From Iphione sp. A-MEVVRFRX5 (taxonomy: Eukaryota), in NCBI GenBank assembly GCA_976226885.1, contig OZ320318.1, positions 55,118,001 through 55,182,000 of the forward strand: a stretch of DNA of 64,000 nucleotides, in the 5' to 3' direction. The position numbers and the translations under genes are program-made. The notes under the pieces are model-generated. The model ran no database searches and was not told the origin of the DNA. It was given only the letters and a program-made list of their open reading frames with translations. Below, one piece after another: positions 16,901 through 59,700 of the stretch (positions are counted from its first letter, which is position 1; each line of letters begins with the position of its first letter).

Positions 16901-19119
16901 TATGCTAAATTTTTACTGCAGACTAAGAGGGGAAGATCCACCTATAGAAAACAGCGCTGGTTACTCTTCAGCAAGTCTCAAACCAACTTACTGCCCATCC
17001 ACTGAAATGATTCAGCGTGAATAGATAGATGACAACCAGAAGCTGTCGCATGTTGTGACCCAGTCCTTCAAACCTTTATAACAAAGATAGCTAACCATGG
17101 AGATTTGGTAATGAGAATTCGTCCTAAATAAATTTTGTCTTATCTGATATGAAGCAACGTCCTAATTACAATTTAGTAGCGTAAGTCTTTTCACATCAGG
17201 GCGAGCCACCACGATTTTTAAAAAATCAAGGGACTCAAAATCCACACAATAAATTAGAATTCTATGCGTTCATTACATCTAGTTAATTTGTTACTATAAC
17301 AAAATGTTACTGTACCACAAATGGTGTCACCATACACTTATTCCCTCCTTTCCTGAGTAACATCAGCTGAACCTTTGACACCCTGACAATAGAAATTTCT
17401 CCGTTTGTTCAAATGATTACAAATCAAATCGAACACGCACTAAAGTCGAATGGTCCAAACTGGTTTCACCTTCTTTAGTATTAGTTCAATAGATGTTTCT
17501 CTGAATTCACTCAAGAGATCGTACCTGGAGCACCTATGCAGTTGCCTGTGCTGTTGTTTGGTAAGGCATTGCAATCCACCTGATCAACGATACGCTGAGT
17601 CAGATGATGCGAACACTTCCGGAAGACACCTGCAAAACAACTACTTCATATAAATATTTCAGTGGATAAAACATTCTTATACACAAGTAACAATGAAATG
17701 TCTTGCCCACTAGCAACAGGATCCAGTATATTTCTACCAGTGAGGTACGTACTCTGGTGTACATCTTATACACGGTTTTTTTAACCATAGATACAAATAG
17801 GATCTGAATACCAATGACTGTTGAAATGGCAGAACCTGTACACGCACTTAGGCACAACTCTCGGCACGGACGCAAAGTTGTAAGTTGCTCTCCTTGTATG
17901 CATTGCGGAAAGAAGACAGCACAGATGAGTCTGCTTGCATATGGGTGACACTTAGTCTCAAACACGTCAAGCACACCAGCAAGACCAGCGGCGGCACCTG
18001 CCTGTGAACTGTGGCCCAGGATGTTGGGGAATGTTGTCACGTTGTAAGGTATGAGGCTCGAATCGCGACACTCATCCACCCAGATCGATTCACACGTGGC
18101 TAGAAACAGCAGAAGTTCAGCACAAGATCATTAAACACAAGATCAACACAGAACAATAGCGAAAGAAGAAACATTAACTTGCTGTTGGGGTTAAAGTTGA
18201 CGTTATAGTTGACACCGAAGAATATAAGGCAAAAATATTCGACACCTTTAACCAAATCTGCGTATTGGTTTTGTTCATTACATCGTAATTATAGACTATC
18301 CATTGAGATCCTCTGCGTTGTTTAGGGAACTTTAGCTTTTTATACAATCTTATGCAAACAAAATAATTGTAGTGTGTCCACTTCACAAGTCCTTACCAAA
18401 AACATTGCAAAGCCATGTGCTTTAAGCTCACAAAGAAATAGACATGCCGGTAGGCAGTGGCTAGATAATCTATAGATATAAATTTACATATATTGTCAGG
18501 GAGACTGACCAACATATACTGTCAGCATAATTCTTTTCAGTAACTAGTTCTATTTCATTTGAAAAGAAAACTCTCCCTCTATCAAACCACACCTTCCCTG
18601 AAATTTCATTTAGCGTGAAAGGTGACCTCCTTCCCCCACTCTTTGAGGCATGTTTGCAGGTCTGCAGTCCATATTAGAACGTTTCATGAACATAAAAAGA
18701 ATATTTGTGGAACCCCATCTTCGCTTTGCTGGACAGACACTCCGGGCCGATGGCCCTAATTTAAGCGTCAAATTTGCCCTGAGCGGATGCATCTGTCAAC
18801 ATCACGGGAAATGATCCACCTAATTGAGAGCTGCCAAGTATTGAGGATAAATCGTGAGACAAGCACGAGGTATCAAAAGCACGAGGTCGAAATTAATGGG
18901 GATACCATATTTCCATGAGTACTGCATGAATTTACAGCAACGTTCTATACTCGCCATAACATCATCTCTACTGAACAACTCTACTGAAATCCTCTACTGA
19001 AATCCTCATATCATGTAGTCTACTTACGTGGTGTTGTCGGTATCGTGGCAGACGTCGGAGTCGTTGAAGCAGCCGAGGTTGATGTTCTTGAGGTGGATTG
19101 CGTAGAAGGCTCTGTAGAT

Positions 19120-22100: not shown

Positions 22101-25100
22101 ACATTAAAGCGCGAAATAACGCTCCCTTTCCTGAAATAATGCAAAGATATGGTCAACCAGCGAAGTGATAGGGCAAACTGTTTTCAATGTACAATTGATG
22201 AATTTGAAAAATGGATCACGTGTCATAGAAAGTGGCCTACAATTCTAGAGGCTTTGAATTCAAAGGTCATAAGAATTTCTACCTACTCGTATCCGCTTAT
22301 CACACATTGCTTGTAATCATTGACTAATGAGTTATCGTTCTGGAATATATTGTCCAACTGCAAGAAGAAGATGACACCAGTTTAAAACGAAGGTATTTCA
22401 ACCCACTGCGATGAAGTCAGTGAACAGACTTTGTACAAATGGGATTTGTACAAAATGTCAGTCCGTCCGAAATTTGAAAATATTTTAGCCTGTTTTATTG
22501 TAAGTGCATTTTAATTTTCATATTGACTTGTATGACTGATCTCAAACATGTCTATTACAAACTGAAGATCATCTAATTGCATTGTAAAGCATTGGTAAAC
22601 ACATGCCTCGAGCTGTTTTTGTACAATACTTTTACTCCCACTCAAACAAAGGGCGGTACAAAAGAAAACGGTGATCTTACCAGATTAGTGACATTTTGGG
22701 TGAGAACTCGGTACTTGGCCGAGTTAGGGTCTCGTAGTTCCGACGAGTACTCCACATCTAAAAATCTAATGCTTGACCGAACGGTGTCAGTCCCTGGAAA
22801 ATGAAGAAGGTTCCAACGTAATCGTGCAGAAGAGAATATTCCATTGAACACACAGACAGACCTCGCCCCCTACTTTGAATCTTTGTAGTTGCCACTATTT
22901 TGTCTGAAGTGCGGAACCATATGGAGCATTAAATCATTATACAATTGAAACAATAAAGCTATATTGTGACTGCATATAATTATTTGATGTAGTGAGGAAT
23001 TCGAAGTTTCCAATCTTCGGAGTAGTGAGGTCTGATTGTATTTAGTCTACAGTATTTTAATATGTGCGTACACATATTTTTCATGTTATTAAAAGGGGAA
23101 CAAGATAAGTAGAAATAATATTGTCATTGTTGCTACAGCGACCGTAATTCGTAAATGTTTTACTCACTTGATATCATCAGGTACGTAACTGGGAAACAAG
23201 GGTAGAAATATCGATTATTCAGATGTAGTCAATGGGAATAGTGATGGAAACCTCAATAAAATATAAGGATACTGATAGGGAAAAGATTACTTTCAGCCTT
23301 GGTACGACAAATCAGTAAAATACCAGTGAAAAGGCGAGTCGCATCTAGGAAAAGTGAATCCATTTTTATCCCATGGTTTACCCAGGCTAACTTGAATATA
23401 TTAGATAGCTGTAATGTGATCTACGAATGTATCGTGTGTCTCCACGTCTACATTTCCACAAAGCCTCGGAGAACATGTCTTTTGCGTGTTGGGTACATGC
23501 GATTCGCCACGAAGGGACAGTGCACCGTCCAGAGAACACCACAGGAAAATTGGGTACATGCGATTCGCCACGAAGGGACAGTGCACCGTCCAGAGAACAC
23601 CACAGGAAAATTGCGGCATCCCACAGTCTTTCTTTAATGTAGACACACATCAAAGGCACGGGGTTCAACCGTGTCTACAAGTTTAGTTTCTCACAAATGG
23701 CTGCTCTAGGACATTCGGTGGAGGAATTTTCGTGTAACACTTGGGCGACTTTAATCGAAGGCCAGATGTTTCCGCTGAATTAGTGCAATACTCAATTCCC
23801 TCTTAATATTTACGGCATTATGATGAATATAAATTTCTGCGACCGCAAAGAACGTTTGGTGTGTCCAGATTTGACGTCCTGTACGGGAAGATATGCCTTG
23901 TTATTCGTCACATATTCAAAAGAAAAGTCGTATAAAGCCATTAACTGTTAAAAAAAAAACATTTTACTGGGACTGTTGTTTATGTGGGGAGATCTACATC
24001 AAGACACCTAGCTTAGCTGCCTACATTTTATCATGTCCCCTCTGACTTTTGGAAGGAAATCAAGGGGTGTTTCCCTTTGATCGTCTCTTTAGAATACCAC
24101 TAAGAAGCATGACAGAGCGGAGTGTTTGTTTTTAGTGTGGTATCCCTAGAGGGAAAGGAGGCTTTATCGGACATGAACTGCAGCTCTGTCAAACATGTGG
24201 CGAATGGTAACGAGAGTGCCAGAGGGATAACTATTTAAAATATGGTAAATATAGTCAGGCATATTACCACTCTTGTTCATACCGTCCAACAAAGGCGATT
24301 TATATTTGTTGAAATACTCGTCCATGTTTCATTCCTTATCTAAAGGATAGCGCTAACGGTTCAATCCAACCATTGAAATCAATGCTCTCTTTCAGGTAAA
24401 TAACGTGTGAATTGCCTATCCACCTCTCAACAGATCATTCTGATATAGCCTTTCGACATTTACGGGTAAAAATGAAGGAAAACCGATACATACGGCCTAC
24501 GCAAGCATCCACTGAGGAGGTAAATCGGTAATCATAATTTGAATAAAACTAAACTGCATGGAATATTCACCACTGATCGAAAGAACCACCTGAGGAAACT
24601 GTATTATATGTTTTATACAAAAATATAGACCACTTCACAGTCATGCGCGTATATATGTTTATATTAACTAAGATTTTTAAAAAATGGGAATATAATGTGA
24701 AAAAAACAACCTCCACATACTTAGGAAGTAGAGACCAACAGCCAGCCCAGCAAGGACAGCAAGCAGGACCAGAAGAACTAGCAGCCGCCGGCAGGTGCAC
24801 ACTTTACGTTTGGTGAAGGTGACCTTGTGGGGTAAGTCCTGCAAAGAATTTATCGTCAGGTAAGTGTCATCTGAAAGCATCATTAGTTCTTAAATCCGTG
24901 AGAAACGGCTTTCTTAAAGTTACGGTATATCTATCACTTGATTGGCTTAATGAAGACACTATTGACAAAATCATCATGTGATTATGTGCTCTATCACACA
25001 TGCGAGTATACCGCAAAGATTTAACTAACAATAACATCAAGGCTTATTCTACTCAGCCGCGTAGTCCTCTGTTGTGCACATGTTTTTGTTCTCAAATTAG

Positions 25101-33460: not shown

Positions 33461-33614
33461 ATGGGATCATCTTACGAATCATTCTACTAATAAAATTTCC
33501 AATAGATACAACTGACGTACAACGGATGACATGGGGGATGGGATCATATTACGAATCATTCTACTAATAAAATTTCAAATAGATACAACTGACGTACAAC
33601 GGATGACATGGGGG
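33461..33614. repeat. 77-bp tandem duplication
   Basis: ATGGGATCAT(C/A)TTACGAATCATTCTACTAATAAAATTTC...GGATGACATGGGGG starts at 33461 and 33538. Confidence 0.85.
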
Positions 33615-33790: not shown

Positions 33791-35071
33791 GGCCCGGTAC
33801 CCATGCATCAATATCAATATTGCTGTGCCAATGGCGTTTCATCTACGCTAAGAAAGATTGAGAAGGGTGTACCCCAAGGCTCAACCCTTGGTCCATTGTT
33901 ATTCTCTGTTTTTATAAATGACATGCCAGCAGTTGTAAATGAAGACATCACCCTGTTTGCGGACGATACCTTAATCTTAGTGAATGATAAATGTCCGGTT
34001 AAACTGCAGCAAAAATCTCAAACATCTATGGAGAAATTGACTAATTGGTGCAACAATAACAAATTAGTCATGAATATCGCCAAAACAAAAATTCTGCCTG
34101 TATATTGTAACAATGCTGAACCTAATCAGGGTATCTTTATTGGCTCAGAGGAAATTGAATATGTTTCTGAATACACATACCTGGGAATAATTTTAGACAA
34201 GTCAATGAAATTTAAATCTGAAATTGATAAAGTAATTAAGAAGGTACTTCAGAAGGTAAGCTTATTGTACAGGTTAAAACCTTATTTGAATGTATCAGAT
34301 ATGATAAGAGTATATAAAGGATTCATTCAGCCACATGTTGATTATTCAACGGCTATGTTGAACTGTTGTAGTAAAAAGGATCTCAACAGGTTGAACAAAT
34401 TACAAGACAGAGCTTTAGCCATAATATATACAAACTCCCCCACCTACAAACGATCCAAAGTAATGCTATCCAGTCATGATCTGCATATTGCCCTCAACTG
34501 CATGAAGATTACTGATAGAAGAAAAATGTTCACTGTCTGTATTATTCACTGTCTACATCTTCATGGTCTGTTACCGAAGCAAAAACCCACCTCTACAAGA
34601 CAACATGATGCCACAACTCTACTTGTCACCAAACCAAAAACTGAACTTGTAAAAAACTCTATTCATTACCATGGTTTAAACCTATGGAACGGTCTTGACC
34701 CAATGATTAGAGAAATTGAATCAATGGACATATTCAGAGTACTGACCAGATTTACTAAATAATCATTAACATTCAATCATTGCTTCAATAATTGCTTTTC
34801 TCTTCTCTGTCCAATTTGAAAAACACAAAAATTCTGTATTCCATTGTATCTGTGATATGTATGTATATAGATGTATGCATCCATTCTACAATAACGTCTC
34901 AAAGAGGCGAAGTACGGATGAAATAAATTACTTCTTATCTTATCTTATCTTATCTTTATCCGGAGATTTTTTCCACACTGTCGGTAGTCCAGAAAAATAC
35001 GCTGTTTTCCGGACATGCACGGACACCCAGTTTCCATGCACCCAGACTTGATTCTCCCTTTCTCCCTGTCT

Positions 35072-45082: not shown

Positions 45083-45550
45083 GACGAGCCTGAGAATTGT
45101 TGGGGGGTAGCACGGAACATATATGTGGAGGACTTCAAAATTGCTTGTAGCATTTTGCTCGTATATTGTTGTCCTCTCTGGCAATATGTGACCAAAAGTA
45201 CAACAGAGAATTATGTCTCTAACTGACTGCTGCGTATCGACGAGATCTGTACGCGATTCAGTGATTTTTCCTCAACACTAATAACAATCACGTCTTTGCA
45301 CATTATACGTTTGTCCCCTCTAATGTATATCGCAGGACCCTGAATTTATTGTACACATTCTATATATACAAAATTCGGTTTTCTGAATCAGGATAACGAC
45401 AGACGTACTGATAACAACCGAGACAAATTGTTTTCCTGTTGCTCAATTAGACGAGCCTGAGAATTGTTGGAGGTAGCACAGAATATATATGTGGAGAACT
45501 TCAAAAATGCTTGTAGCATTTCGCTCGTATACTGTTGTCCTCTCTGGCCT
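45083..45550. repeat. Local ~98-bp direct duplication separated by ~270 bp
   Basis: GACGAGCCTGAGAATTGTTGG...GTTGTCCTCTCTGGC at about 45083 and about 45451, with roughly ten differences. Confidence 0.75.
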
Positions 45551-46104
45551 GTTGCTCAATTAGAAAGGTGTGTTAAATACTTCACAATACAGCTTCAGAA
45601 AAAGACGACTTAGTGCCACACATGAGTGTTATTCACCAACTAGATGAAGTGGGAGCAGGCAGTAAACTAATAAGATTAGTGAGAAGTTACCTCTCCCTAT
45701 GAAAACACTTTGTAAGATGCAAAGACGGTGACTCCAGCTGCAGGATTCTCAGACAGGGGTCCTGCAAGGGTCTGTGTGTGACTCACTTCCATAGTATACA
45801 TCAGCTGTGGTGTATGCCGACGATATGACTGTTTTGGCATATGCAAAGGACCCCTACAACTAAGGAAAATGGCCCCAAACACCCTAGAGCGTGTGATTAG
45901 GGCTTGGTCTTGAGTTGAGTGGTACCAAAATTGAGCAAGTGGGTGTAATGATCCTATTAGGGCTCATTGTAGATGATAGACTCAATTTTATAGAGGAACG
46001 CAAAAAGTAAGGAGGAAGTTGTGTGAAGTGGCATTGAAGATGCTGGTTAAGAAGAGAAGCTTGCCGGCTGTTCATAATCAGATGGCCATGTCACTCATTC
46101 CTAT

Positions 46105-46546
46105 TGTAAGACGTGGATGAATAAAGATGTGAACAACTCAGAGTCCAGTTCCAAACTGTTTATTACCTTCCAAAGTCAGAGTTTATATAGCCCATAGGGG
46201 CCACAGTCAGCCAATCAGGAAGTCAGACATGTTCCTCAACCAATCAGAAATCAGGGCCATTAGTGGCAACAATGTATCACACTTAAAGAAGCATCTCAAC
46301 CAATCAGTGCCTACCCTCCGACATGAGATACAAAGTAATCAATTTTGGAACGCCCCCCCACCAATCAGAGAGCTCCCCCCATTTAAGGAAGTGTGGGGTG
46401 ATCTGCTGTTGACCAATCAGGGTATAGCACCCGGCAGTGGAAATTTCCATACAAACGTGCGTGCGGTGTTCCTGGGGAAACCGGTGCACTATCTGGTTTG
46501 GGTGTGGTGTGTCAAAGTCCTATCTGGTGCGCCAGCCTATTCTACA
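46105..46546 (-). repeat. 3' LTR (442 bp)
   Basis: Five CCAATCAG boxes (46211, 46240, 46300, 46361, 46413); on the minus strand TATATAAA (46189-46182) and AATAAA (46164-46159). Adjacent to the PPT. Confidence 0.97.
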
Positions 46547-46560
46547 CTCTCCCTACCTTT
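46547..46560 (-). promoter_or_regulatory. Polypurine tract
   Basis: Minus strand AAAGGTAGGGAGAG directly abuts the TGTAGA start of the 3' LTR. Confidence 0.9.
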
Positions 46561-47168: not shown

Positions 47169-48710
47169 CTAATCTAAAAGGTAGGTCACTGGGTTAGCGT
47201 TCTTGCAGACGTCCACCATCGTGGGGTTTTCCCGCTCTTGATGTCTTCTGGCTGTCTCGGCTTCGTCGTGCCATAACCGTACCGTCTCTTCCGACAATGT
47301 CGGTGCCAAGGGGTTTGAGGGTCGCCAGTCTCTTATCTTCTCTAGTGCTGCCTGTATGGTTTGGTTATGAATCTCGGTGAGATTCTGAATGGGCTCCCAT
47401 TCTCCCCGCGATGGTGCCGCAGTCCCATCCAAAATCAGATATGGCCTCTTCTGTAGTGGTTCTAAGAGAGAATGGGGCATCTGAGGGTCCTCAGCTAGTT
47501 GGAGCACCCATGCCAATGACAGTCCTGCTATCAAGCGTGCTCCATTGCTAGCTGCTTCCCACCCTCGTGGTGGCCAGGTGAGTCCCGAAGGCAACCGCAC
47601 CCATGCTGGTGTTGGATCCTGCCGTACCACTGCCGGGTTACTCCCTATCCGTCCGTCTAGAAATCTTTCTAGATAGTCTTCCACCTTCCGTCGTCTCGAC
47701 CCCTCCGGGATGGCTTCTTGTAGAATGGCCCACAAGTCCCCTTCTTCCGTGGACGTTACATTAGACTCCGGTGATCCTGAGTCTTCTTTCCTCGATGTGT
47801 CAGGTCTGGTTGATGGTCTCAGGCCGGCAAGAGGGGATTCTGGCGTCGTTTCGGGCTTAGTTGTTGATGTTCCCTTGGTGGCGGGTATCAGTTGTGCACA
47901 CCTCTCCGGGGTTTCGTACTCCATTGGTACAACCAATGGTGTAGAACCAACAGATGACTTCCCTTGACAACGCTCTCTTAGATCCGGGAATCCTACCTGA
48001 TGAGACACGAACGTTGGGGGTCCTTGTCTGTCTCTCATTGTAGGCTCTCCGTGTTCTCCCCCAGCCACTTGCTCGGTAGTTGTCTCCTCTGTTGATGTAA
48101 GATCATCGTCACTCTGGGGGGTCCTTCGCCGCTTTCTGGTAGGGGAGCCGGCTAAATTAATGTCCTTGCGTCTTCTTGGTGGCGTCCCCTCGGCTGCAAC
48201 TTTCTTCTCTTTTGGAGTAGGTTCAAGAGGGACAGCCTCCTCCTCGGAATCTTCTTCCTCCCCAAGGACCACGGTGTTCTCCTTTGCGTAGCGCACCCAA
48301 GCTTCGACTCTCTCGCGGGATGAAGACTCCCCTTGCTTCCAGGCCCTCTGCAACTTGGAAATAGTCCAAGACGTCCAGTCTGCAGGGACATCTGCTGTCT
48401 CTTCTCCTTGTACGACTTGGTAGAGTGGGTGGTAGGTGCGCCCCGTGAGACCCAGGTTCACTGCCCAGGTGTGATGCCTGTTGTAGTGACGCTTCCACGA
48501 GAAGGTATTGATGCAGGTCTGAGGGCAGATTAAGCACGCCATCAGTTGGCTGTTATCGTGGTACGTCCTGACGTGCTTCCTCAACGACTTCTGTGAGGGG
48601 AAGATTTTCCTCTCCTGACACTGGTCACATAGTGTATATCCCTCTGGAATGGCTTGTCCTTCTTTTAAGACTCTTGGGGGTTTCTCTGGAAATTTCTTCT
48701 TTCTCGGCAT
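47169..48710 (-). CDS. Accessory ORF: 513-aa protein with two N-terminal C2H2 zinc fingers and NLS-like basic clusters
   Basis: CDQC-x14-H-x4-H with F-x5-L-x2-H, and CLIC-x12-H-x3-H. Basic clusters MPRKKK, PPRRRK, TRKRRR. Uninterrupted, inside the LTR pair; no signal peptide or TM, so not env. Confidence 0.85.
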   Translation of the reverse strand: MPRKKKFPEKPPRVLKEGQAIPEGYTLCDQCQERKIFPSQKSLRKHVRTYHDNSQLMACLICPQTCINTFSWKRHYNRHHTWAVNLGLTGRTYHPLYQVVQGEETADVPADWTSWTISKLQRAWKQGESSSRERVEAWVRYAKENTVVLGEEEDSEEEAVPLEPTPKEKKVAAEGTPPRRRKDINLAGSPTRKRRRTPQSDDDLTSTEETTTEQVAGGEHGEPTMRDRQGPPTFVSHQVGFPDLRERCQGKSSVGSTPLVVPMEYETPERCAQLIPATKGTSTTKPETTPESPLAGLRPSTRPDTSRKEDSGSPESNVTSTEEGDLWAILQEAIPEGSRRRKVEDYLERFLDGRIGSNPAVVRQDPTPAWVRLPSGLTWPPRGWEAASNGARLIAGLSLAWVLQLAEDPQMPHSLLEPLQKRPYLILDGTAAPSRGEWEPIQNLTEIHNQTIQAALEKIRDWRPSNPLAPTLSEETVRLWHDEAETARRHQERENPTMVDVCKNANPVTYLLD

Positions 48711-48885: not shown

Positions 48886-49189
48886 CAAATCTAGTGTCCC
48901 CAAGGCCTGGACCCCTTGCAATCAGTCTCCTGTTTAGGGTACCCCTCCTAAGTAGGTTGATAAGAACTGACCTGAGTATGGTGCGCCCCTTCTTTCTTGA
49001 TCCTGATGTCTGTAGTAGATGACAGCTGGTTATTTACGGTTCTTCCCCTTCTATCAGCTGCTATTCACGTTACAACCACCTAAGTGTGGTAGGAAAACCC
49101 TAGTTTTGCTTCTAATTTCAGAAAAACGTTGTCCGTTTTCGTAATTTCTGCCGAAATCGTCTGCTGATTCTAGTTCTCCGCACTGCCTC

Positions 49190-49735
49190 GTGGTGGCGCC
49201 CCAGTGTTGGTGCGCTTCGAGTGCGGTGCGACAAGCATTTTCATTCAAACTTGGTCTTTTTCGTCTCGGATGGGCTTCATCGCAGGGGTGTTGCGTTGTC
49301 CACATACATTTCCTCGTTTTCGTGCTGTTTTTTAGGAAAGTCTGTGTGTTTCTGTACGATATTCGACCGGTGCGACGGCTTTAGTTCTTCTAAGTGCTGT
49401 GTGGTGGCGCCCCGATGTTGGTGCGCTTCGAGTGCGGTGCGCCAACTAGTTTCGTTCGACTCGCGAAAATGGAAGATTCTGATGTCTCGGGTGGGCTTCA
49501 TCGCATGGGTGTTGTGTTGCCAACATACATCTCCTCGTTTTCGTGCTGTTTCTTCGGAAAGTCTGTGTGTTTCTGTACGATATTCGACCGGTGCGACGGC
49601 TTTAGTTCCTCTAAGTGATGTGTGGTGGCGCCCCGCTGTTGGTGCGCTTCGAGTGCGGTGCGCCAATTATTTTCGTTCGACTCGCGGTCGGTGACGAAAA
49701 TGGAAGGTTCCGATGTCGTTGTGGCCCTATTTAAG
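49190..49735. promoter_or_regulatory. Internal promoter-like block: 2.4 copies of a 211-221-bp repeat ending at a TATA-like box
   Basis: GTGGTGGCGCCCC...TGGTGCGCTTCGAGTGCGGTGCG starts at 49190, 49401 and 49622. TATTTAAG at 49728-49735, with a CCATT initiator-like A 31 nt downstream (49759). Confidence 0.6.
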
Positions 49736-49814
49736 CTTCCTTGAGATGATTCGATGCCATTCAGCCCTAAGTACTTTCTTCAGGCAGCTGTCAACATCTC
49801 TTCACCTCCTCATC

Positions 49815-51279
49815 ATGGAAATGTGAGTTTTTGCTTGTCTCCCTTTGGCAGGATATCCTTGCTTGTCACTCCACCGCCATTGTTTATGTTATCCGGTGGC
49901 CTACTTGCATCTTCTGGTACAGGTTGATCAGGTATTTCTATTCATTTCCTGATATTTCCTCCTGCTCCATGATGATGTGGGTATCCCTCGGTACATTTCC
50001 ATGTGGTTTCGTATGCCTATTCTATGTCTATCCATGTCTTTCTCTCTCTAAAGGGATTAATTTTCACCCCTGTCACTATGCTGCATGTTGTCAAAGCATT
50101 ATTAGTTCTCACCCCTGTCACTATGATGCATGTTGTCCAGCATTGTGTACCACGGGGTCTGGTCCCCTAAGTGCCGAGGGGTCCTTGCCCGGTTACCTGT
50201 CTATGATAGCTGGTGGGGTCTTCAGGCTCTCGCTCATTTTCTGTCATTCTTTACCAGGGTTGACTCCCCTCCTTCAATTCTTGTAGGCATCACGTGATGG
50301 ACGATCCTGTTCGAGGTGGTTATGCACCCACTGACCCAAGGTGAGTGTTGTTAATTTTTAACAGTCTCCCAGTTTCTTCCTTCCTTCCCCCAGGTTTCCC
50401 GCAGTTCTCTGATGTCTGTTGCCTGTCTCTCTATCCCACAGGTACGGCGACGCTGCAGTGCCCGCTCCTTATGGTGTTGTTCCCGCGCCCGTTGAGGATT
50501 TCCCGTAAGTTACCAGTTAACGTCCTGTCTTGAGCGGAAACCGTACCTAGTCTCAGTCTTCCTCCGTTTAATTTTCTTCTAGTGTCCACTGTGCTCACAG
50601 GTTCGCCGACCTTGTGTTTTCCAGAGGTGCCCCTTACGTCGATATCTACTCTCCGGGGCCTCGGCTGCGTGTCTCTGGTGTCCGGGCCGCCCCGGAGGCC
50701 CCTTTTTACCTGGATGTGCCGGGCCATCTGGCCCTCTACGGGCCAGGATATACCATGGACCTGTCCTTACGCCGCAGTGACGACATCCTGACGGGTATCC
50801 TTGCAAGTGACCCGGCGCAGCCGACCACTATCGTCTGGCCTCGTGATGCAGCCCCGGTCGCTGGGGTTTGGCCCCAGGATGAGCCCCTGCCGTCACCGCG
50901 TTCCTTGGATGCGTACCTCGGTGGAGGGGACGGATGGGCTACGGTGGACAATGCCAGTACCTCCAGCTCAAGTGGTTATGCGACCGAATGGGAGTACGCT
51001 AGCATGACCACAGAGGTACTCGACCCTGGTCTCACTTCCGGGGACGATAGCAGCGACACATCAGATGTTCCAACACTAGTCAATCAAGGATCAGGGGGGT
51101 CTGCTCCAGCCTCACCCGATCCATCGACGTCGTCGAGCGTCTATGACACCCCCACTCGTTCGCCAGAGCTGCCGCCTGGACTAGATGTAGCGATCTTCGG
51201 GGCCTGGTGTGATGGCCTGGCTCCGGGAGATGCGCCGTTCTGGCCCATCTATGTCTCTTCCGACGAGGATGAAGATTAA
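49815..51279 (+). CDS. Spliced antisense accessory gene of the Gypsy element; 267-aa acidic, Pro/Ser-rich, lysine-free protein of unknown function
   Basis: Exons 49815-49822, 50287-50340, 50442-50504, 50601-51279. Donors GTGAGT, GTGAGT, GTAAGT with pyrimidine-rich acceptors, all phase 2, giving 804 nt open. Kozak aTCATGG, TATTTAAG at 49728, AATAAA at 51323. Confidence 0.75.
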
Positions 51280-51322
51280 TATCGTTTCACCTCCACTGCT
51301 TCCGTTGACATGTGCTTCTGGC

Positions 51323-51328
51323 AATAAA
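51323..51328 (+). terminator. Poly(A) signal for the antisense gene
   Basis: AATAAA 44 nt after the TAA stop, followed by a GT/T-rich tract (TTTGTGTCTTCTTGTCTTTCC). Confidence 0.7.
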
Positions 51329-51509
51329 ACTAGTAGACCTTCATATTTGTGTCTTCTTGTCTTTCCTCTCTAGCTAGCTAGCTTAGATAGTGTCACTGTG
51401 GTATCAATGTTTTCATTCTTGTTCTCCTAGGTTCTCCGTCGCGAAACCTGAAGCACCCTCCTGGACTTCACCATTCCAGAATCTTCCTGAGTTGGGTCCA
51501 TAGACTCAT

Positions 51510-51785
51510 TCCCAGGGCACTTCTCCGCATCCCGCTCCTCCAGGACTTTCGAGCTGAATCCTACGACTCACTCCCGGGGCACTTTCCTGCATCCCGCTCC
51601 TCCAGGACTTTCGAGCTGAATCCGAAGATTCACTCCCGGGGCACTTTCCTGTATCCCGCCACTCCAGGACTTTCGAGCTGAGTCCTTCGACTCACTCCCG
51701 GGGCACTTTCCTGCATCCCGTCACTCCAGGACTTTCGAGCTAAATCCGAAGATTCGCTCCCGGGGCACTTTCCTGTATCCCGCCG
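51510..51785. repeat. 62-bp tandem array (~4.4 copies) just after the pol stop
   Basis: GGGCACTTT recurs at 51515 (variant), 51577, 51639, 51701 and 51763. Confidence 0.9.
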
Positions 51786-51799
51786 CACCTGTCTTAATT

Positions 51800-54700
51800 T
51801 TAAACTAAGTTCTTGCGTCGCCACGACACGATCCACTTCGGTGGAGGTGATTTACGGTATGGTCTGAGTCGGTTCCGATGTATCACTTTTGGTTTCGCTG
51901 ACTTGGACTTTACTACCACAATTCGTCCAGGATCGAGGATGCGCACCGCTAACCATGGTCCCGTCCAAGGGAAGTGTATCTTTGGGCTCTTCCCCTTTGG
52001 AGGTTGGGCGTTGTGTAACCATAAGGCATCCCCTGCCGTTATCTCTTCTTGCTTCACCCGCTTATTATATTGCAGGGCCTGGGACTTTGCAGCTTGTTGG
52101 AGGTTTTCCCGAGTCTTCCGGTAGGCCGCCTGTAATCGTGCGTGTAGTCGGACGACCGCGTCGGGGTAGGTTTGTTGTTCTTCTTGCTCTTCCGGGTACC
52201 CATCCATTACATGTGCAGGCAGTACGACCTCCCTCCCAAACATGAGGTAGTTTGGTGTATACCCTGTACTGCTTTGTGGCGACGAGCGATACGCCATCAT
52301 TAACATAGGGAGTGCTTCATCCCACTCGGTATCTGTCTCAAAACAGTAGGCCTTGATCATGCGGCCCAGGGTCCTGAAGCTCCGTTCAATGAAGCCATCT
52401 CCCTGTGGGTGGTGGGGTGTCGTCCTCGTCTTCTTTATTTCTAGTAGGTCACACAGTTTAGCCATGACATCGCTACAGAAGTTGGTGCCTTGATCACTAT
52501 GAAGTTCCCTGCAGCATCCGTAACGGGCGATCACTTCCTCCATCAGTATTCGGACGATGCGTTCTGTCTTTTGATCAGGCATGGCGAATGCCTCGAGCCA
52601 CTTAGTAAAATGGTCCCCGACCATCAGAATGTATCGATTCGACCGGGACGTGACCGGGAGTGGGCCAGCTACATCCATGGCCCATCGTTCCATAGGTTCC
52701 CCGACTACATATGACTGGAGGCGGGTGCATGGTCGTTTCGGATTCTGGTGTAGTAGTGCACAGTGACAGTTCTTACAAACTTGTTCGACGTCTCCCTTCA
52801 TCCCTGGCCAGTAATACAGAAGAGACACCTGAAAGTGTGTTTTGTCAGTTCCCAGATGTCCACCCGCCACACCACCATGAGTCTGCATGACGGCTTCCTC
52901 TCGTCGTATCCTTGGCAACACAATTTGGAGTCGGGTGTATTCTGTATCGGTTCCTATCCATCGCCGGCACAGGATCCCTTTGTTCACCTCCAGACGATAC
53001 CATTGGCGCCATAGGCTTTTGGCCACGGTCGAGAGGGGGGATACCGCTTCCCACGGTGGTTGTGTCGATTCTTTTTCCATCAGTTGAAGGATGGGTCCAA
53101 TGTCTTCGTCCGCTAGTTGGTCACGGCGTAATTCAGTATCCCTTGCCCCAGCTGCACGTGCTCGAGTAATGGCTGCGACTGTTGGACCCAGATGTTCTTC
53201 TCCACATTGTCTACACGGTATTCGAGATAGTGCATCTGCATTCGCGTTGTTCTTTCCCGGACGGTGTTGAAACTGTACTTGGTACTGGCTTATGCGCTCT
53301 AGCCAACGGGCCAATTGTCCTTCTGGGTCTCGTATTCTGCTTAGCCAACTCACGGCGCCATTGTCGGTTCTCACCATCACGGGTTGTCCGTATAGGTAGA
53401 AATGGAAATGCTTCAGTGCCGCCACGACTGCCAGCAGTTCCTTTCGCATCGTGCAGTATTTCCTTTCGGCAGAGTTCAGGCTCCGGCTGAAATAGCCTAG
53501 TACCACCTCTCGTTGGTCCTGTTCCTGAGACAGCACGGCGCCCAATCCGACATTACTCGCATCCGTGTCCAGAAGATATCTGCCCACTGATCTCGGGAAT
53601 CCCAATATGGGGCTAGATGCCAGCTTGCCTTTTAGTTCCTTGAAGGCTGTGAGTTCATCTGGGCCCCATGTGAAGGTGGTTCGAGCGCCCGTCAACCGGT
53701 TCAGTGGCGCTGCCACGTGAGCAAAATTTGGCACAAACCTTCGATAGTAGGAGCAAATTCCCAGGAATGCTCGGACATCTGTGGTGCAAGAGGGAACTGG
53801 CCACTCTGTGATGCTTCGTGTTTTCTCGGGGTCGGTGGCCACCCCTTCCTGAGAGATACGATGCCCCAGGAAGTTGATCTCCCGCATGAACAGCTTGCAC
53901 TTAGTCGGTTTTAATTTCAGTCCGGCTGCCTCTATCCTTGTCAACACATTATCAAGTCGGTTCAATGTTTGTTGAAAATCAGTACCAAACACGAGTACAT
54001 CGTCGAGGTATACCAGGCATTGCTCCCACGACAGCCCTCGCAATACTGTGTCCATAAGTCTCTCAAAGGTCGCTGGTGCGTTGACTAACCCAAATGGCAT
54101 CACGGTGAACTCATAAAGGCCCAGGGAAGTAGAGAAGGCTGTCTTTTCCTGATCTTCTGGATGCATCCGAACCTGCCAGTACCCGCTTGCTAGATCTAAC
54201 GAGCAGAAATACCTGGCACCTGCCAGCATGTTGAGTGAATCGTCGATGCGTGGGAGGGGGTATGCATCCACCTTGGTTTTCTGGTTGAGTTTCCTATAAT
54301 CTACACAAAATCTGGTAGTGCCATCTTTCTTTTTTACCATAACCACAGGACTGGACCATGGGCTACGACTCTGACAAATCACCCCCAGCTCCTCCATCTC
54401 CCGTACTAGTTTTCTCTCTTCCTCTCTGCGGCTAAACGGTAATCTCCGGGGCGGTTGTTTAACCGGTTGAGCTGTGTCGGTAAAGATACGGTGTTGTACA
54501 GCATCGGTCTGTCCCATATCCGCTTTTCCCCGCGCTAGGGTGTGGCGATGGTCCCACAACAGTCTACTCAGCTCATCTCTCTGAGCGGGGTCCAGTGTAT
54601 CTTGTGTGTCTTTGAGCAATTTTTCTATTATCTCCCGGTAATCCTGATCAAAGCTCGGTTTCTGGGATTCCTCTCTCACTTGGCTGACTCTTCCCACGGG

Positions 54701-55399
54701 TGTCTGACTCACCGGAGTTCCCATCGCTACCATTGTCCCCTTGCGTAGACTAACTTCCATTTGAGATACATTCCATAATGGTACCACCGTCTCGGGTCCG
54801 CCTTTGATCACACAACGGACCCCTACTATGCCTTGTTGAATCAGAGACTCATGTACTCCTTCTACCAGCAGAGGATGATCAGTCCCTCCCTGCACCTTAG
54901 CAGACATCCCGGAATTGGGGGGTAGTTTGAGTTCCTCGGTTATATACAATTCGGTGGGGCCTAGCTGCATTACTCTTCTACATTCCTGACCAGTTGCTCC
55001 TAAAGAAAGTTCTCGCGTTTCTAGATTAATGATGGCCCGATTCTGTTTCAAAAAGTCGTTTCCGATAATTCCATCCCCTTCTATGTCCGCGAAGATGAAC
55101 TCATGTGCAAATTCTTCTTTTCCCACTCTGAACTCTAAAATTTGGCTCCCCTGAGTAGGGATAACGTGTCCTCCGGCTCCCACAATCCGCGTGGGGAGCC
55201 CCGTGGAGACTAGGCCAGGGATAACATGGGGGTTCACAATGGATACTTCCGCCCCTGTATCTACGAGTAAAAGGAGTTGCCTCCCAAAAATGCTCACCTT
55301 TAGATACAGTCCCCGGTCTGTCTCCATCGTGCTCCCCAGGCTTAGTGGGGCGGTCGATCCGTCCTGGCCTACTGGCTGGTCGACCGCTGTGCGTTTCCC
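51800..55399 (-). CDS. pol: Pol polyprotein (protease, RT, RNase H, integrase), entered by -1 frameshift
   Basis: Protease LVDTGAEVS; RT YPLPRIDD, MPFGL, YLDD; RNase H TDASNVGLGAVL, ELLAVV, TDNG; integrase H..H..C..C, MDVAGP, HSDQG, IERSFRTL; GPW (GPY/F-like) tail. The ORF-track frame is open 55708-51800 without stops. Confidence 0.97.
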   Translation of the reverse strand, partial: GKRTAVDQPVGQDGSTAPLSLGSTMETDRGLYLKVSIFGRQLLLLVDTGAEVSIVNPHVIPGLVSTGLPTRIVGAGGHVIPTQGSQILEFRVGKEEFAHEFIFADIEGDGIIGNDFLKQNRAIINLETRELSLGATGQECRRVMQLGPTELYITEELKLPPNSGMSAKVQGGTDHPLLVEGVHESLIQQGIVGVRCVIKGGPETVVPLWNVSQMEVSLRKGTMVAMGTPVSQTPVGRVSQVREESQKPSFDQDYREIIEKLLKDTQDTLDPAQRDELSRLLWDHRHTLARGKADMGQTDAVQHRIFTDTAQPVKQPPRRLPFSRREEERKLVREMEELGVICQSRSPWSSPVVMVKKKDGTTRFCVDYRKLNQKTKVDAYPLPRIDDSLNMLAGARYFCSLDLASGYWQVRMHPEDQEKTAFSTSLGLYEFTVMPFGLVNAPATFERLMDTVLRGLSWEQCLVYLDDVLVFGTDFQQTLNRLDNVLTRIEAAGLKLKPTKCKLFMREINFLGHRISQEGVATDPEKTRSITEWPVPSCTTDVRAFLGICSYYRRFVPNFAHVAAPLNRLTGARTTFTWGPDELTAFKELKGKLASSPILGFPRSVGRYLLDTDASNVGLGAVLSQEQDQREVVLGYFSRSLNSAERKYCTMRKELLAVVAALKHFHFYLYGQPVMVRTDNGAVSWLSRIRDPEGQLARWLERISQYQVQFQHRPGKNNANADALSRIPCRQCGEEHLGPTVAAITRARAAGARDTELRRDQLADEDIGPILQLMEKESTQPPWEAVSPLSTVAKSLWRQWYRLEVNKGILCRRWIGTDTEYTRLQIVLPRIRREEAVMQTHGGVAGGHLGTDKTHFQVSLLYYWPGMKGDVEQVCKNCHCALLHQNPKRPCTRLQSYVVGEPMERWAMDVAGPLPVTSRSNRYILMVGDHFTKWLEAFAMPDQKTERIVRILMEEVIARYGCCRELHSDQGTNFCSDVMAKLCDLLEIKKTRTTPHHPQGDGFIERSFRTLGRMIKAYCFETDTEWDEALPMLMMAYRSSPQSSTGYTPNYLMFGREVVLPAHVMDGYPEEQEEQQTYPDAVVRLHARLQAAYRKTRENLQQAAKSQALQYNKRVKQEEITAGDALWLHNAQPPKGKSPKIHFPWTGPWLAVRILDPGRIVVVKSKSAKPKVIHRNRLRPYRKSPPPKWIVSWRRKNLV
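55336..55399 (-). promoter_or_regulatory. -1 programmed ribosomal frameshift signal (G GGA AAC + H-type pseudoknot)
   Basis: Slippery heptamer at 55399-55393 in the gag frame, 5-nt spacer, stem 1 GCGGUCGA/UCGACCGC, loop CCAGG pairing with downstream CCUGG. Confidence 0.8.
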
Positions 55400-56262
55400 T
55401 GATTTGGTGTCGAGGTTGCTGTGGTGGTCACCAATTCCGGGCAGTCTCGGCGAAAATGACCAGGTTTGCCGCATTGAAAGCAATTGTTGTGCTTGGGTCG
55501 TGACTGGGCTCGCCTCTGTTGGAGTTCCATCCGTAATTTTTCCATCTCCTGTGCGAGAGTCTCTTCGATCTGTTTTCGGAGCGCCTCTTGAGTCGGTGTT
55601 GATGAATTTTCGGTTTGCAGGGCGCGAATCTTTCTCTTCTGAAACCGTTCTTGAAGTTCTACGGCCTGTATGGCCTCTTCCAATGTCTTGCAACCCTTCT
55701 CCAGGCATTTGAGATGTAGGTCTTCTGATAGAGCCTTCTGAAAAGTAGAAACTGTGGTGAGTTCCCGTGTCTCTTTGTCTACGTCCCCGTACGCGTTCTT
55801 CACTACGCGGCGTACGCGGTCTGCGAAGTCTCGGATGTCCTCTCCAGGTTTCCTCTTCGTGGTAGCGAGGTCTTGCATAGCTGCGAGGCGGTCCCGCCCT
55901 CGCCCGAAACGTTCACTTAGGGCTGCTACCTTACCTCCATAAGTGGAACGTTCCTCCCTGGACAGATCCCCGTAGAACGCTCGAGCACGTCCGGTTAGTG
56001 AAAGTCCTAGGACTGCCGATTTGGTTTCGTCCGTCCAGTTGCATACACCTGCCCATTCTTCGAATTGGGCCAGCCAGCCGTCCCAGTCACTCTTACCGTC
56101 GTATCGTTCCGGTCGTAGTGCATTCAACCTCATTGGCTCTTCCGGGGCGAGCACAAATGGTTCCACTTCTTCCTCTCCATCGCCCCCTGCCTGACCTGGC
56201 AGTGGAGAGGGAATCCGCAACTGGACCTCGTCGTCCACATCCACTATATGTGCATGAGCCAT
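55369..56262 (-). CDS. gag: Gag (297 aa) with CCHC zinc knuckle
   Basis: Retrotransposon capsid-like 'PERYDGKSDWDGWLAQFE...LSLTGRARAFY' and CFQCGKPGHFRRDC. ATG is 5 nt after the PBS. Confidence 0.93.
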   Translation of the reverse strand: MAHAHIVDVDDEVQLRIPSPLPGQAGGDGEEEVEPFVLAPEEPMRLNALRPERYDGKSDWDGWLAQFEEWAGVCNWTDETKSAVLGLSLTGRARAFYGDLSREERSTYGGKVAALSERFGRGRDRLAAMQDLATTKRKPGEDIRDFADRVRRVVKNAYGDVDKETRELTTVSTFQKALSEDLHLKCLEKGCKTLEEAIQAVELQERFQKRKIRALQTENSSTPTQEALRKQIEETLAQEMEKLRMELQQRRAQSRPKHNNCFQCGKPGHFRRDCPELVTTTATSTPNQGNAQRSTSQ

Positions 56263-56267
56263 ATCTT

Positions 56268-56285
56268 ATCCCACCGCTGCCACCA
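56268..56285 (-). promoter_or_regulatory. Primer-binding site complementary to tRNA-Leu
   Basis: Minus strand TGGTGGCAGCGGTGGGAT, 3 nt from the LTR, is complementary to ATCCCACCGCTGCCA+CCA, the 3' end of metazoan tRNA-Leu(AAG/TAG) as I recall it. Confidence 0.9.
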
Positions 56286-56288
56286 AAT

Positions 56289-56730
56289 TGTAAGACGTGG
56301 ATGAATAAAGATGTGAACAACTCAGAGTCCAGTTCCAAACTGTTTATTACCTTCCAAAGTCAGAGTTTATATAGCCCATAGGGGCCACAGTCAGCCAATC
56401 AGGAAGTCAGACATGTTCCTCAACCAATCAGAAATCAGGGCCATTAGTGGCAACAATGTATCACACTTAAAGAAGCATCTCAACCAATCAGTGCCTACCC
56501 TCCGACATGAGATACAAAGTAATCAATTTTGGAACGCCCCCCCACCAATCAGAGAGCTCCCCCCATTTAAGGAAGTGTGGGGTGATCTGCTGTTGACCAA
56601 TCAGGGTATAGCACCCGGCAGTGGAAATTTCCATACAAACGTGCGTGCGGTGTTCCTGGGGAAACCGGTGCACTATCTGGTTTGGGTGTGGTGTGTCAAA
56701 GTCCTATCTGGTGCGCCAGCCTATTCTACA
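56289..56730 (-). repeat. 5' LTR (442 bp)
   Basis: TGTAAG...TCTACA on +. No difference from the 46105-46546 copy by eye. Adjacent to the PBS. Confidence 0.97.
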
Positions 56731-59700
56731 CTATGGTACACAGCAGCGATACTATATTTGATTCCTCCATCAGGGGTGCTGTAAACATTCAGGCAAGATC
56801 ACTGAGGTACAAGGGTTTCAAAGCATGGAAGGCCCTCCCTAGGTCTGATAGAGACGTAGGATTTAAAAACCATTGTGTGATTTTAAAAATGTTATAAGAA
56901 AGAATTATATTGCACTATTGTAACTTTTGTACATATACTTCTAAATCTATTTCCTGTCATTTATTTTTGTAGTATTACCTTCACTGGAAGACCTCCTGTC
57001 CTGAGTTAATCAAGAAGTAAATAAAAGAATTTCAAATCCAAATGGGTCACTAAAGGAACAGTCCGGGCTGGATCTGAAAAAGCTCCAGGTGGAGGCAGTA
57101 CCCTTGGAGCAGTGGTGGTTGTAGCCTGCTATGAGATCCTGACAATTCAAGAAGTCTGTGAATTTGACAATCTTGTAATCATATAGGTATTCTCTTGCTA
57201 GGTTCTCACATGACGAAATACTGGTCTAGCATAGATATCAGAACAGAGAGGAAGGATAGGGTTCTAGGGTGTGTGGTCAGGACAATAGGAAATTTCCAAC
57301 ATCTGCAGCTCTGCTTCATTGCTAGTTTCATTTTTTAGTAAGAATCTCAAAGGAAAACTGCAAGACTGTGTGACAGAACATTGCAGATCAGTAGGCTAAC
57401 ATGAGTGGGAACTGTGAGAAGGCGGCACACTGGATATTCAAACCAGTAATGTAATTGAAGTATGATGCTTCCTCAATCTGCAACATGTTGTTTGATGACA
57501 AACTTCTCTGGTAATACATTTGTACCATTAGAAGAAAATGAATCATGGCAATAAAGATCACATCTCTGCTTAATAGGATGAACCTTGTGTGAATCAAACT
57601 CGAGTTTATGTCCAGCTGACTGGACTCTTACAGATGCCAGTGCACTTTCGCTGTTACTCAGGGACAGCAACTATGATTTAACTTGCTTAGAGATGATTTG
57701 TTTTGTACTGGAATAATTGCCTAGTGATGAATTTGTAATGTAACCAAACTTTATCAAGTATTACCTTAGATATGATTCTGATTGTTATATAACGTATATA
57801 GATGTATATCGACATGTCTAGTAGTTGTGGGCTAGCGGCCCCATTTTTCTACTTAATGCAGTGTCTTGCCTTGATTTATACATATACTAGTCAGGAAGCC
57901 ACTTTTGTTTCTGTTTGATTGTGTTACATTTTTTATTCCCACGAAAAAATCTGTCCTGATGAGAATGAGAATAAACATAATCAATTCAATTCAAGTGTTC
58001 TAATAAAGATTTAATTACTCAGTATATGGAATCAATCTAATATAAAGGTGTCACTTGGGTATAGTCGTAAACTTTCAGGGAATATAAATACCTGTAACAC
58101 ACAATACATGCATTTTAATGCTTACATGATAAAATTATACGATGAAACCTCTAATCAGGACCTACTCACTTCCTTACCCTGCTGCCTGTAATTGAAGGAT
58201 CGCCGATTTACGTAATAATGTCCAAATAACGCCATGTCTCTGACAGTTTCCTGCCTGCTAAACAGCAAACTGTACGTACATTCGTGTTGCATTCTTTTGA
58301 CTTTATTACGTGATGTAACAATTTGTCGATTGAAAAGTATCAAGATTAGGAATATTGTGTCCCGAACCCACTTTCCTCCAATCCTGACGTATATTATGAC
58401 ATTGAAGGGAACAAACACCTACAGAGGAAAGTCCCTGATCATGACACACTTAGATCTTTCACTAACTGTCCCTATTTGCGACATATTTCCGTTAGAGGCC
58501 ACTTAAAATCGATGTGCATGTAGTATATAATCTGTTCTTTCTTAGAGCGCCCTGATAGGAGAGGTGTCCCACTTGGAGACGTGTTCATGATATGGCTATC
58601 CATCTGCTTTTAAATAGATTAGGCGACGTATTAAGTCCACAGGCCTCACACATCTTGGTGTAGCTACTTTGTCTGTCATCATCGTCTCCTCAAAACCTTT
58701 CCACATGTTGACTCTCTGATGGAAAACGTCACCTGACATAATAGGAGTGTAATTATGCATCTATTCATAATTCATGTATGTATTTATGCATCTATTCATA
58801 ATTCATGTATGTCCAGATTTATCTGCAAAACCAAAAATTTGGTAATATTATATGAAAATAGAAAAATGCAAAAATCACGACTAGTCAGTCAACCTTTCTC
58901 TCTTTGGTATAAAAACCTTTGCTATTCAAGTAAATCTCCGACCTCTCATGTGTTACCTTGGGAAATCTCTAGAATGATACTCTAATGGATCCCTTCATCT
59001 TCTGTGTAAGAGTCGCTTATTTACTCTTTGTCATACCTTCCTCCAGAAAGGATCCATTTTCATTGCTTGGCTTATCTGATGTGAAGTGACAATGCTTTAT
59101 GTGACGAAGGCCAAAATACTTTTATTCCAATAATGTGGACTATGGGGTAAGGAACGCTTCTTGTACACACGAATAAATGATATCTGTGTTATGTTGACCC
59201 AACAGACCGTATTTTCCTTTGTTTCTTATCTTTAAGTAGCCTTTTCCAGAATACGTAGAGCCACAAATGTAACTTTCCATTATTTGTAGTTCCTTTTGGT
59301 CAGGGTTTGTGCTTATATGGTCCCTTTTGTGGGAAACATGCTAAAAGTAAGGGTCACTAGAAATTAATTGAGCATTTAGTGTTAAATTTTGGATTGCCTG
59401 GCATATACGTGTAGCTTTATCACTAACATTCATTGTTAATTTCAGCTTCGTACCATATACTTTACATGGGTTTTTTTACTTTTGTGGTTTGAAGATAGTA
59501 TAAACATAAATATGTTTGTTAAGTGTATGTTTACTAAAACCACGAGTGTGATATGCAAATGAAAAGAAAGTTATGCAAGTTACTACCGAATCAAATTTGA
59601 ACATCAATATCGATATGAAGAATGTTTATTTGTAACATGTTTATTTTTTCAACACCGAAAGACTTCACTGAATGGAAGGAAAAGTATTTCAGACAAGGGC

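Follow-up and report, generated by a model that had tools for sequence, protein, structure and literature searches.

We have found that a Gypsy-type long terminal repeat (LTR) retrotransposon of 10.6 kb, lying on the minus strand of a stretch of 64,000 nucleotides from Iphione sp. A-MEVVRFRX5 (contig OZ320318.1; the whole stretch is called the window below), almost certainly carries a spliced protein-coding gene on its opposite strand. A preliminary description of the window had proposed such an element-encoded gene, with a promoter and terminator of its own, and the proposal is supported by conservation, by selection and by the recurrence of a TATA-initiator pair. The gene is a fixed and selected part of at least ten element families with hundreds of copies. 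Its predicted product has few lysines and a C-terminal motif that may bind SUMO, and it is tempting to speculate that it helps the element to escape silencing.

All the signals on which the preliminary description relied are in place: the TATA box, an ATG at 49815, donors GTGAGT, GTGAGT and GTAAGT at 49823, 50341 and 50505, acceptors ending at 50286, 50441 and 50600, and AATAAA at 51323. Its exons are joined in phase 2 throughout and add up to 804 nt, or 267 aa, with the stop codon at 51277-51279, and the transcription start that it placed near 49759 falls, according to a motif scan, exactly on the A of an initiator. A DNA search of the genome (1.18 Gb in 89 contigs) gave 41 matches among the best 40 of 122 candidates, and the 30 nearest copies (83-100% nucleotide identity) were compared. 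All 30 retain the first two acceptors and the second and third donors, while donor 1, the stop codon and AATAAA are intact in each of the 29 copies that cover them. Copies about 83% identical overall retain about 70% identity in intron 1, with large length changes, and about 90% in exon 4. In an alignment of 18 rows that extends into a second family (L035-L050; such numbers denote loci), five junction dinucleotides are invariant in every row, and only 2 of 89 and 3 of 109 adjacent pairs are invariant in the intron cores. Exon patterns were parsed in 43 of 50 loci, leaving seven unparsed; exon 2 measures 54 or 60 nt and exon 3 measures 63 nt in all 43, and intron 1 ranges from 261 to 684 nt. 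The argument that such a set of junctions exceeds chance is borne out, since splice sites are conserved across copies while the introns drift. Conservation of splice sites and frame in related elements had been named as a check on the gene, and both are kept across the family and beyond.

The same comparison corrects the model at two points. The third acceptor proposed earlier, AG 50599-50600, is found in no more than 17 of the 30 close copies and in three of the 18 aligned rows. An in-phase AG at 50623-50624 is present in all 18, and the 24 nt between the two AGs are free of the third-position bias found in exons 2 and 3. Judging by the alignment, the conserved third acceptor is 50623-50624, not 50599-50600. 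The window copy has three in-phase AGs in intron 3 (ending at 50582, 50600 and 50624), and any of them may be used there; the first two are restricted to a young subfamily. AG 50581-50582 was rejected as the true acceptor, being present in only four of 18 rows. As to the start, the ATG at 49815 is missing in three of 29 close copies and was not seen by the donor in the second family. A split start, with AT closing exon 1 and G opening exon 2, is found in 39 of the 43 parsed loci and is also visible by eye in L033, L044, L047 and L062. The conserved start codon is, on this evidence, an ATG interrupted by intron 1. An in-frame ATG within exon 2 was rejected as a start, as it is not conserved. 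The stop and phase of the 267-aa product described earlier thus stand, but with the corrected exon-4 boundary and start its predicted length becomes 257 aa from the split ATG or 259 aa from ATG 49815; the 267-aa form is possible in the young subfamily.

Ratios of nonsynonymous to synonymous substitution (dN/dS) were obtained from plain nucleotide alignments of 14 pairs. When the calculation is confined to the first 100 exon-4 codons, comparison of the window with ten copies yields 0.06-0.33 and the remaining four pairs yield 0.16-0.35; the predicted frame is free of stops, and all the other frames contain them. Whole exon 4 gives 0.10-0.29, with one or two apparent stops in three comparisons, all inside gapped regions. 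In the eight copies that have diverged, dN/dS is at least 1.0 in frames +1 and +2 and in two of the minus frames. The mirror frame of exon 4 gives 0.14-0.40, yet carries 5-17 stops per comparison, and a sense-strand coding frame was rejected on this ground as the source of conservation. Indels among close copies are multiples of three. By these estimates exon 4 is under purifying selection, in the predicted frame only. The promoter signals recur as well: a TATA box followed by an initiator at a distance of 30-33 nt lies upstream of the gene in 23 of 53 divergent loci, and controls over pol and on the other strand each gave 0 of 53. A shared TATA-initiator pair for ORF3, a third open reading frame (ORF) of the element, was considered and rejected (0 of 14 elements).

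To define how widely the gene has spread, we rely on protein searches of the genome, in each of which only the best 150 candidates were scored. Exon 4 of the window has at least 197 matches in the best 150 of 932 candidates, mostly open frames of 234-235 codons. In 20 divergent loci pol or ORF3 lies on the opposite strand in all, and both do so in 17. When loci were picked by ORF3 alone, 18 of 20 had an exon-4 homologue, mostly about 30% identical. A distant exon 4 used as the query gave at least 150 further matches (925 candidates), and the loci so picked had ORF3 on the opposite strand in 20 of 20 cases and pol on the minus strand in 19. All 58 divergent gene-bearing loci examined also hold the element's pol or ORF3, and no host copy independent of the elements turned up among the best 150 candidates per search. 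For the 28 loci in which integrase and exon 4 are both intact, trees of the two agree on ten groups and on a 7/21 split, and the integrases of these ten families are up to about 0.85 changes per site apart. The antisense gene holds a fixed place between pol and ORF3 in all ten.

The gene structure varies among the distant families. Seven loci (L054, L060, L065, L074, L076, L078 and L079) have an unsplit ATG and a first exon that ends in ...D-R at a phase-2 donor, similar to how exon 2 ends in the window family. Distant families appear, from their sequence, to carry one or two introns instead of three, and the number of introns would therefore have changed inside the element. Runs of T (up to about 45 nt) lie in the intron before exon 4 in L054 (about 3150-3196), L060 (about 3133-3174), L055 and L065, and would be read as internal poly(A) on the genomic RNA.

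The protein family has no relative that we could find beyond this genome. A homology search with exon 4 gave none at E<=0.01 among 1364 scored candidates (lengths 123-394 only), and a profile of 14 exon-4 sequences, built before the distant families were known, had 0 matches at E<=0.001 to 1.84 billion representatives. Pfam returned two single-member matches only (E 0.07 and 0.13) for 16 exon-4 proteins, PDB sequences returned 0 matches, the best Atlas score (0.87, to phage-tail clusters) lies below the useful range, and none of 92 pattern matches in metagenome contigs was confirmed. Three parts are conserved across families: a beta domain of about 50 aa, short motifs in an acidic linker rich in S and P, and a terminal block with the consensus L-x-x-G-D-x4-P-h-x-h-S-D/E, beyond which some families have 6-12 extra residues. 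The model of the beta domain has a predicted local distance difference test (pLDDT) score of 67, with a core of about 80, and that of full exon 4 only 31. A fold search with the beta domain found none at E<=0.001 in viral and PDB libraries, and the best structural match of this pLDDT 67 model has a VIA Z of 3.1 (root-mean-square deviation 2.8, 49 aligned). In the window, exons 2-4 are free of lysine codons. Over ten family representatives there are four lysines in 2268 aa, against 30 expected by base composition, and their off-frames contain a mean of 16 AAR triplets. Net charge across frames ranges from -8 to -43, with few basic residues.

How might such a gene work? Introns that lie opposite the genomic RNA are invisible to the spliceosome on that RNA, and because of this antisense introns outlast reverse transcription; the plus-strand AATAAA is likewise inactive there. 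The internal promoter would give rise to a separate spliced and polyadenylated mRNA, translated only once removal of intron 1 has formed the start codon, and we hold this part to be very likely. The C-terminal P-h-x-h-S-D/E, with its serines in a CK2-type context, would then act as a phosphorylated SUMO-interacting motif (SIM), the beta domain would engage a second partner, and the absence of lysines would prevent SUMOylation or ubiquitylation of the adaptor itself; for this set of properties the odds seem to us about even. Least certain is the step in which the adaptor would engage SUMO-marked silencing complexes and relieve repression of the element. For the whole chain, a SUMO-binding accessory factor opposing SUMO-dependent silencing of the element, we would put the probability at roughly 0.3. 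That the neighbouring zinc-finger ORF3 protein might aim the relief at the element, the two head-to-head genes forming a counter-silencing module, is a more speculative extension.

SUMO connects piRNA (PIWI-interacting RNA) targeting with chromatin silencing in flies and worms, and an anti-silencing adaptor is favoured because SUMO is needed in piRNA-guided silencing and because lysine deserts typify ubiquitin-system proteins, being frequent in the disordered ones (PMC10169902, in part; papers so marked are cited from their accessible portion). The host genome holds SUMO1-like and SUMO2/3-like genes. SUMO2/3-like and SUMO1-like exons and three polyubiquitin loci were noted at L100:2476-2598, L102 and L091-L098, the best named match of the SUMO exon being from Capitella teleta (85%). 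A strict SIM core consists of three I, V or L residues arranged as hXhh or hhXh, and the SIM of Daxx, IIVLSDSD, is strengthened by CK2 (PMC8616421, in part). One of our families terminates in PIVLSD. A relaxed SIM pattern is present in the window copy and in 25 of 41 frames (39 of 41 with two D/S/E), and a looser one falls within the last 20 aa of 0.8-1.8% of shuffled sequences. A predicted complex of the SUMO2/3-like protein with the last 40 aa scored 0.02, in a run made without alignments and with a tool unbenchmarked on peptides.

Several observations weigh against this interpretation. The strict core occurs in 0 of the 41 frames, which represent only about ten independent families; the relaxed pattern was chosen after the sequences had been inspected, hinges on permitting P at the first position and had low sensitivity in a benchmark. 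Asparagine is likewise halved (21 vs 47 expected), so that the lysine deficit is partly compositional, and the protein, with a net charge of -24, has no basic nuclear signal. SUMO binding could equally recruit repressors as block them. At the level of the gene, the scan that detected the TATA-initiator pair elsewhere did not find it in the second family (L035-L050), two of the 20 ORF3-anchored loci are without the gene (interrupted in one, deleted in the other), and some inter-family branches disagree between the integrase and exon-4 trees.

The same motif could serve self-restraint, as in HBZ of HTLV-1: the protein, by recruiting SUMO-linked repressors, and/or the antisense RNA would lower expression and copy number of the element. 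HBZ is a spliced antisense product that lowers sense expression (PMC10186651, in part), antisense RNA of plant elements has been proposed as a source of double-stranded RNA (PMC7264820), and co-repressors such as Daxx typically combine a SIM with an acidic tail (PMC8616421, in part). We nevertheless consider this unlikely: the families are numerous and young, with identical LTRs and four copies found by the genome DNA search to be 100% identical over 1.2 kb, RNA alone would leave dN/dS near 0.1-0.3 unexplained, and the protein has no bZIP or other DNA-binding domain. Equally doubtful is a helper role in replication, whether in exporting the unspliced genomic RNA, in assembling particles or in targeting integration. 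Such a role has a precedent in CERV of Cer1, a novel spliced accessory protein required for genomic RNA export (PMC10309623, in part), and a function on the element's own RNA or particles would fit a pol-deleted, still transposing subfamily that retains gag and an intact exon 4; but the acidic charge and paucity of basic residues are a poor fit to direct RNA or DNA binding, and CERV itself is a sense-strand product. Somewhat less probable again is an adaptor or decoy for a ubiquitin ligase, in which a lysine-free chain with degron-like motifs would redirect or sponge a host E3 acting on element proteins or restriction factors. The lysine desert agrees with this, as do the conserved D-T-P-x-x-S/P and L-D-P-[GW] motifs and the acidic C-terminal end, which we take to resemble phosphodegrons and C-end degrons; the variable terminus is more in keeping with an internal SIM than with a C-end degron. 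Finally, a mere passenger (a captured host gene or chance arrangement of no current use to the element) could passively retain introns as antisense cargo, but this explanation appears largely refuted by purifying selection within the element, by retention in ten such diverged families and by the constant company of pol or ORF3, and we give it next to no credence.

Antisense extra genes are a known kind, and the gene described here has both the position (opposite gag-pol, between pol and the 3' LTR) and the prevalence (18 of 20 loci, with coding conserved at dN/dS 0.06-0.35) that define the class of antisense additional ORFs. In Boty-like Gypsy elements of Botrytis cinerea and Sclerotinia, an antisense extra gene of unknown function, brtn, lies between pol and the 3' LTR (PMC7264820; PMC8365987, in part). 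It shares with our gene its family-wide presence at this site of a Gypsy element; the host is a fungus, whereas our gene resides in an animal and is placed head-to-head with a sense ORF3 that encodes a zinc finger, and its product, acidic and poor in lysine, has a SIM-like end. The brtn gene of Zhao et al. 2011 reportedly carries introns. Plant aORF-3R genes include gene23 of maize Grande and the ORFs of rice RIRE2 and Retand TRP28 (PMC7264820; PMC11963269, in part). They resemble ours in position, orientation, an internal promoter (gene23), neighbouring tandem arrays, conservation similar to that of gag-pol and lack of a host homologue, but are described as ORFs, the word intron occurring 0 times in the accessible portion of PMC11963269, whereas our gene is multi-exon. 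Their proteins carry TRP28 (PF04195) or similar domains, whereas the window family has no Pfam match, and Transposase_28 (PF04195) was not found in any of 16 exon-4 proteins at E<=1. Among animal retroelements, HTLV-1 hbz and the APH genes of HTLV-2/3/4 are antisense genes, hbz being spliced and driven from the 3' LTR (PMC10186651, in part). The likeness lies in a spliced antisense protein-coding gene, which in the case of HBZ regulates its element; the promoter of our gene is instead an internal TATA/initiator (49728-49762) 3.2 kb from the 3' LTR, there are up to three introns, and domain searches of its product found no bZIP match. CERV, from the Gypsy element Cer1 of C. elegans, is likewise a novel accessory protein that arises by splicing in an animal element and is controlled by phosphorylation, but it is made in the sense direction from the LTR transcript and acts in RNA export (PMC10309623, in part). 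The VANC anti-silencing proteins of VANDAL DNA transposons (PMC13547354, PMC11728184, both in part) may serve as a functional model only, of a transposon-encoded factor that counters silencing, as proposed here; they belong to plant DNA transposons and bind DNA with a MAIN-like domain, and our gene has nothing homologous. Literature searches, subscription journals and Repbase aside, found neither an animal Gypsy element with a spliced antisense protein gene nor a SIM protein encoded by a retrotransposon, and the accessible portions of a C. elegans preprint (10.1101/825315), an annelid survey (PMC8220671) and a rotifer paper (PMC5408684) contain no such antisense gene. The window family is a member of neither the TRP28 nor the HBZ group; as far as the literature search reaches, its occurrence in an animal Gypsy clade, the internal TATA/initiator, up to three phase-2 introns, the split start, the pairing with ORF3 and the unrelated protein family are new.

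LTR retrotransposons of animals are regarded as being made up of gag and pol, with env in some cases, and a multi-exon gene on the opposite strand is invisible to ORF-based annotation. A search for antisense and spliced transcripts has been urged, and the function of antisense extra genes is open even in plants and fungi (PMC7264820). The SIM-like end, the lysine desert and the partner ORF offer handles for asking if anti-silencing proteins, which many viruses and the VANDAL elements of plants possess, are also encoded by animal transposons, and these families provide an example of introns being gained or lost within a retroelement. If the more speculative counter-silencing module, ORF3 included, is real, it would provide the first antagonist of SUMO-dependent heterochromatin silencing to be encoded by a transposon in animals, and antisense placement would permit host-like introns, including one that splits the start codon.

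The host element has the LTR ends, target-site duplication (CTAT at 46101-46104 and 56731-56734), primer-binding site, polypurine tract, gag and order of protease, reverse transcriptase, RNase H and integrase (PR-RT-RNaseH-IN) that characterize Ty3/Gypsy. Its two LTRs are identical (0 mismatches), and it is therefore a young Gypsy copy. The primer-binding site is presumably of the tRNA-Leu type. From the overlap of their frames we infer that gag and pol are expressed by frameshift. Between pol and the 3' LTR follow in order the 62-bp array, the plus-strand gene, the 211/221-bp array and sense ORF3, the two genes being head-to-head.

Features of the element and of its antisense gene (window coordinates)
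Feature	Position	Strand	Remarks
5' LTR	56289..56730	-	442 bp, TG...CA ends
Primer-binding site	56268..56285	-	adjoins 5' LTR; from sequence
gag	55369..56262	-	PNMA-like capsid region, CCHC knuckle
pol open frame	51800..55912	-	PR-RT-RNaseH-IN, overlaps gag
62-bp tandem array	51489..51798	.	between pol and 3' end of antisense gene
TATA box of antisense gene	49728..49735	+	TATTTAAG at 49728
Initiator-like CCATTC	49757..49762	+	A at 49759, 31 nt from TATA, predicted start site
Exon 1	49759..49822	+	predicted leader; optional ATG 49815; AT (49821-49822) of conserved split start codon
Intron 1	49823..50286	+	phase 2, GT-AG, splits conserved ATG
Exon 2	50287..50340	+	54 nt; 60 nt in second family
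Intron 2	50341..50441	+	phase 2
Exon 3	50442..50504	+	63 nt in all 43 parsed loci
Intron 3	50505..50624	+	up to conserved acceptor AG 50623-50624
Exon 4, coding part	50625..51279	+	ends at TAA stop; no lysine codon
Beta domain (predicted)	50626..50790	+	about 50 aa, five strands, conserved across families
C-terminal SIM-like motif PIYVSSDEDED	51244..51276	+	after conserved L-x-x-G-D block
AATAAA (51323-51328) and downstream GT-rich tract	51323..51365	+	from sequence; AATAAA kept in copies
211/221-bp tandem repeats	49171..49686	.	between antisense promoter and ORF3 start (head-to-head region)
ORF3	47169..48710	-	513 aa, N-terminal C2H2-like zinc finger, always beside antisense gene
Polypurine tract	46547..46560	-	adjoins 3' LTR
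3' LTR	46105..46546	-	442 bp

ORF3 is conserved in all families (L031-L090), its 430-600 aa including a further Cys pair besides an N-terminal C-x2-C...H-x4-H finger. No relative was matched among 7996 candidates, the best Atlas score was 0.82, and by Pfam the protein is not env-like. Three loci (L038, L040 and L049) are complete pol-deleted elements of 7.3-7.9 kb with 4-bp target-site duplications and LTRs 99.3-99.5% identical; they share one deletion of about 3.1 kb, gag and antisense exon 4 are intact, and two of them are without most of ORF3. Independent pol deletions are present in L052 and L088. L066 contains a nested ORF of 517 aa (about 6603-8150), which we take for an ORF1 protein of a long interspersed nuclear element (LINE) with a C-terminal NADAR-like domain. 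Elsewhere in the window, a Frizzled-type cysteine-rich domain (PF01392, E 3e-16) at 17600-18127 on the minus strand is a host exon or fragment, another reverse transcriptase fragment (PF00078) at 33791-34762 on the plus strand is probably of LINE origin, and small unrelated tandem or direct repeats are found at 769-974, 23489-23610, 33461-33614 and 45103-45548.

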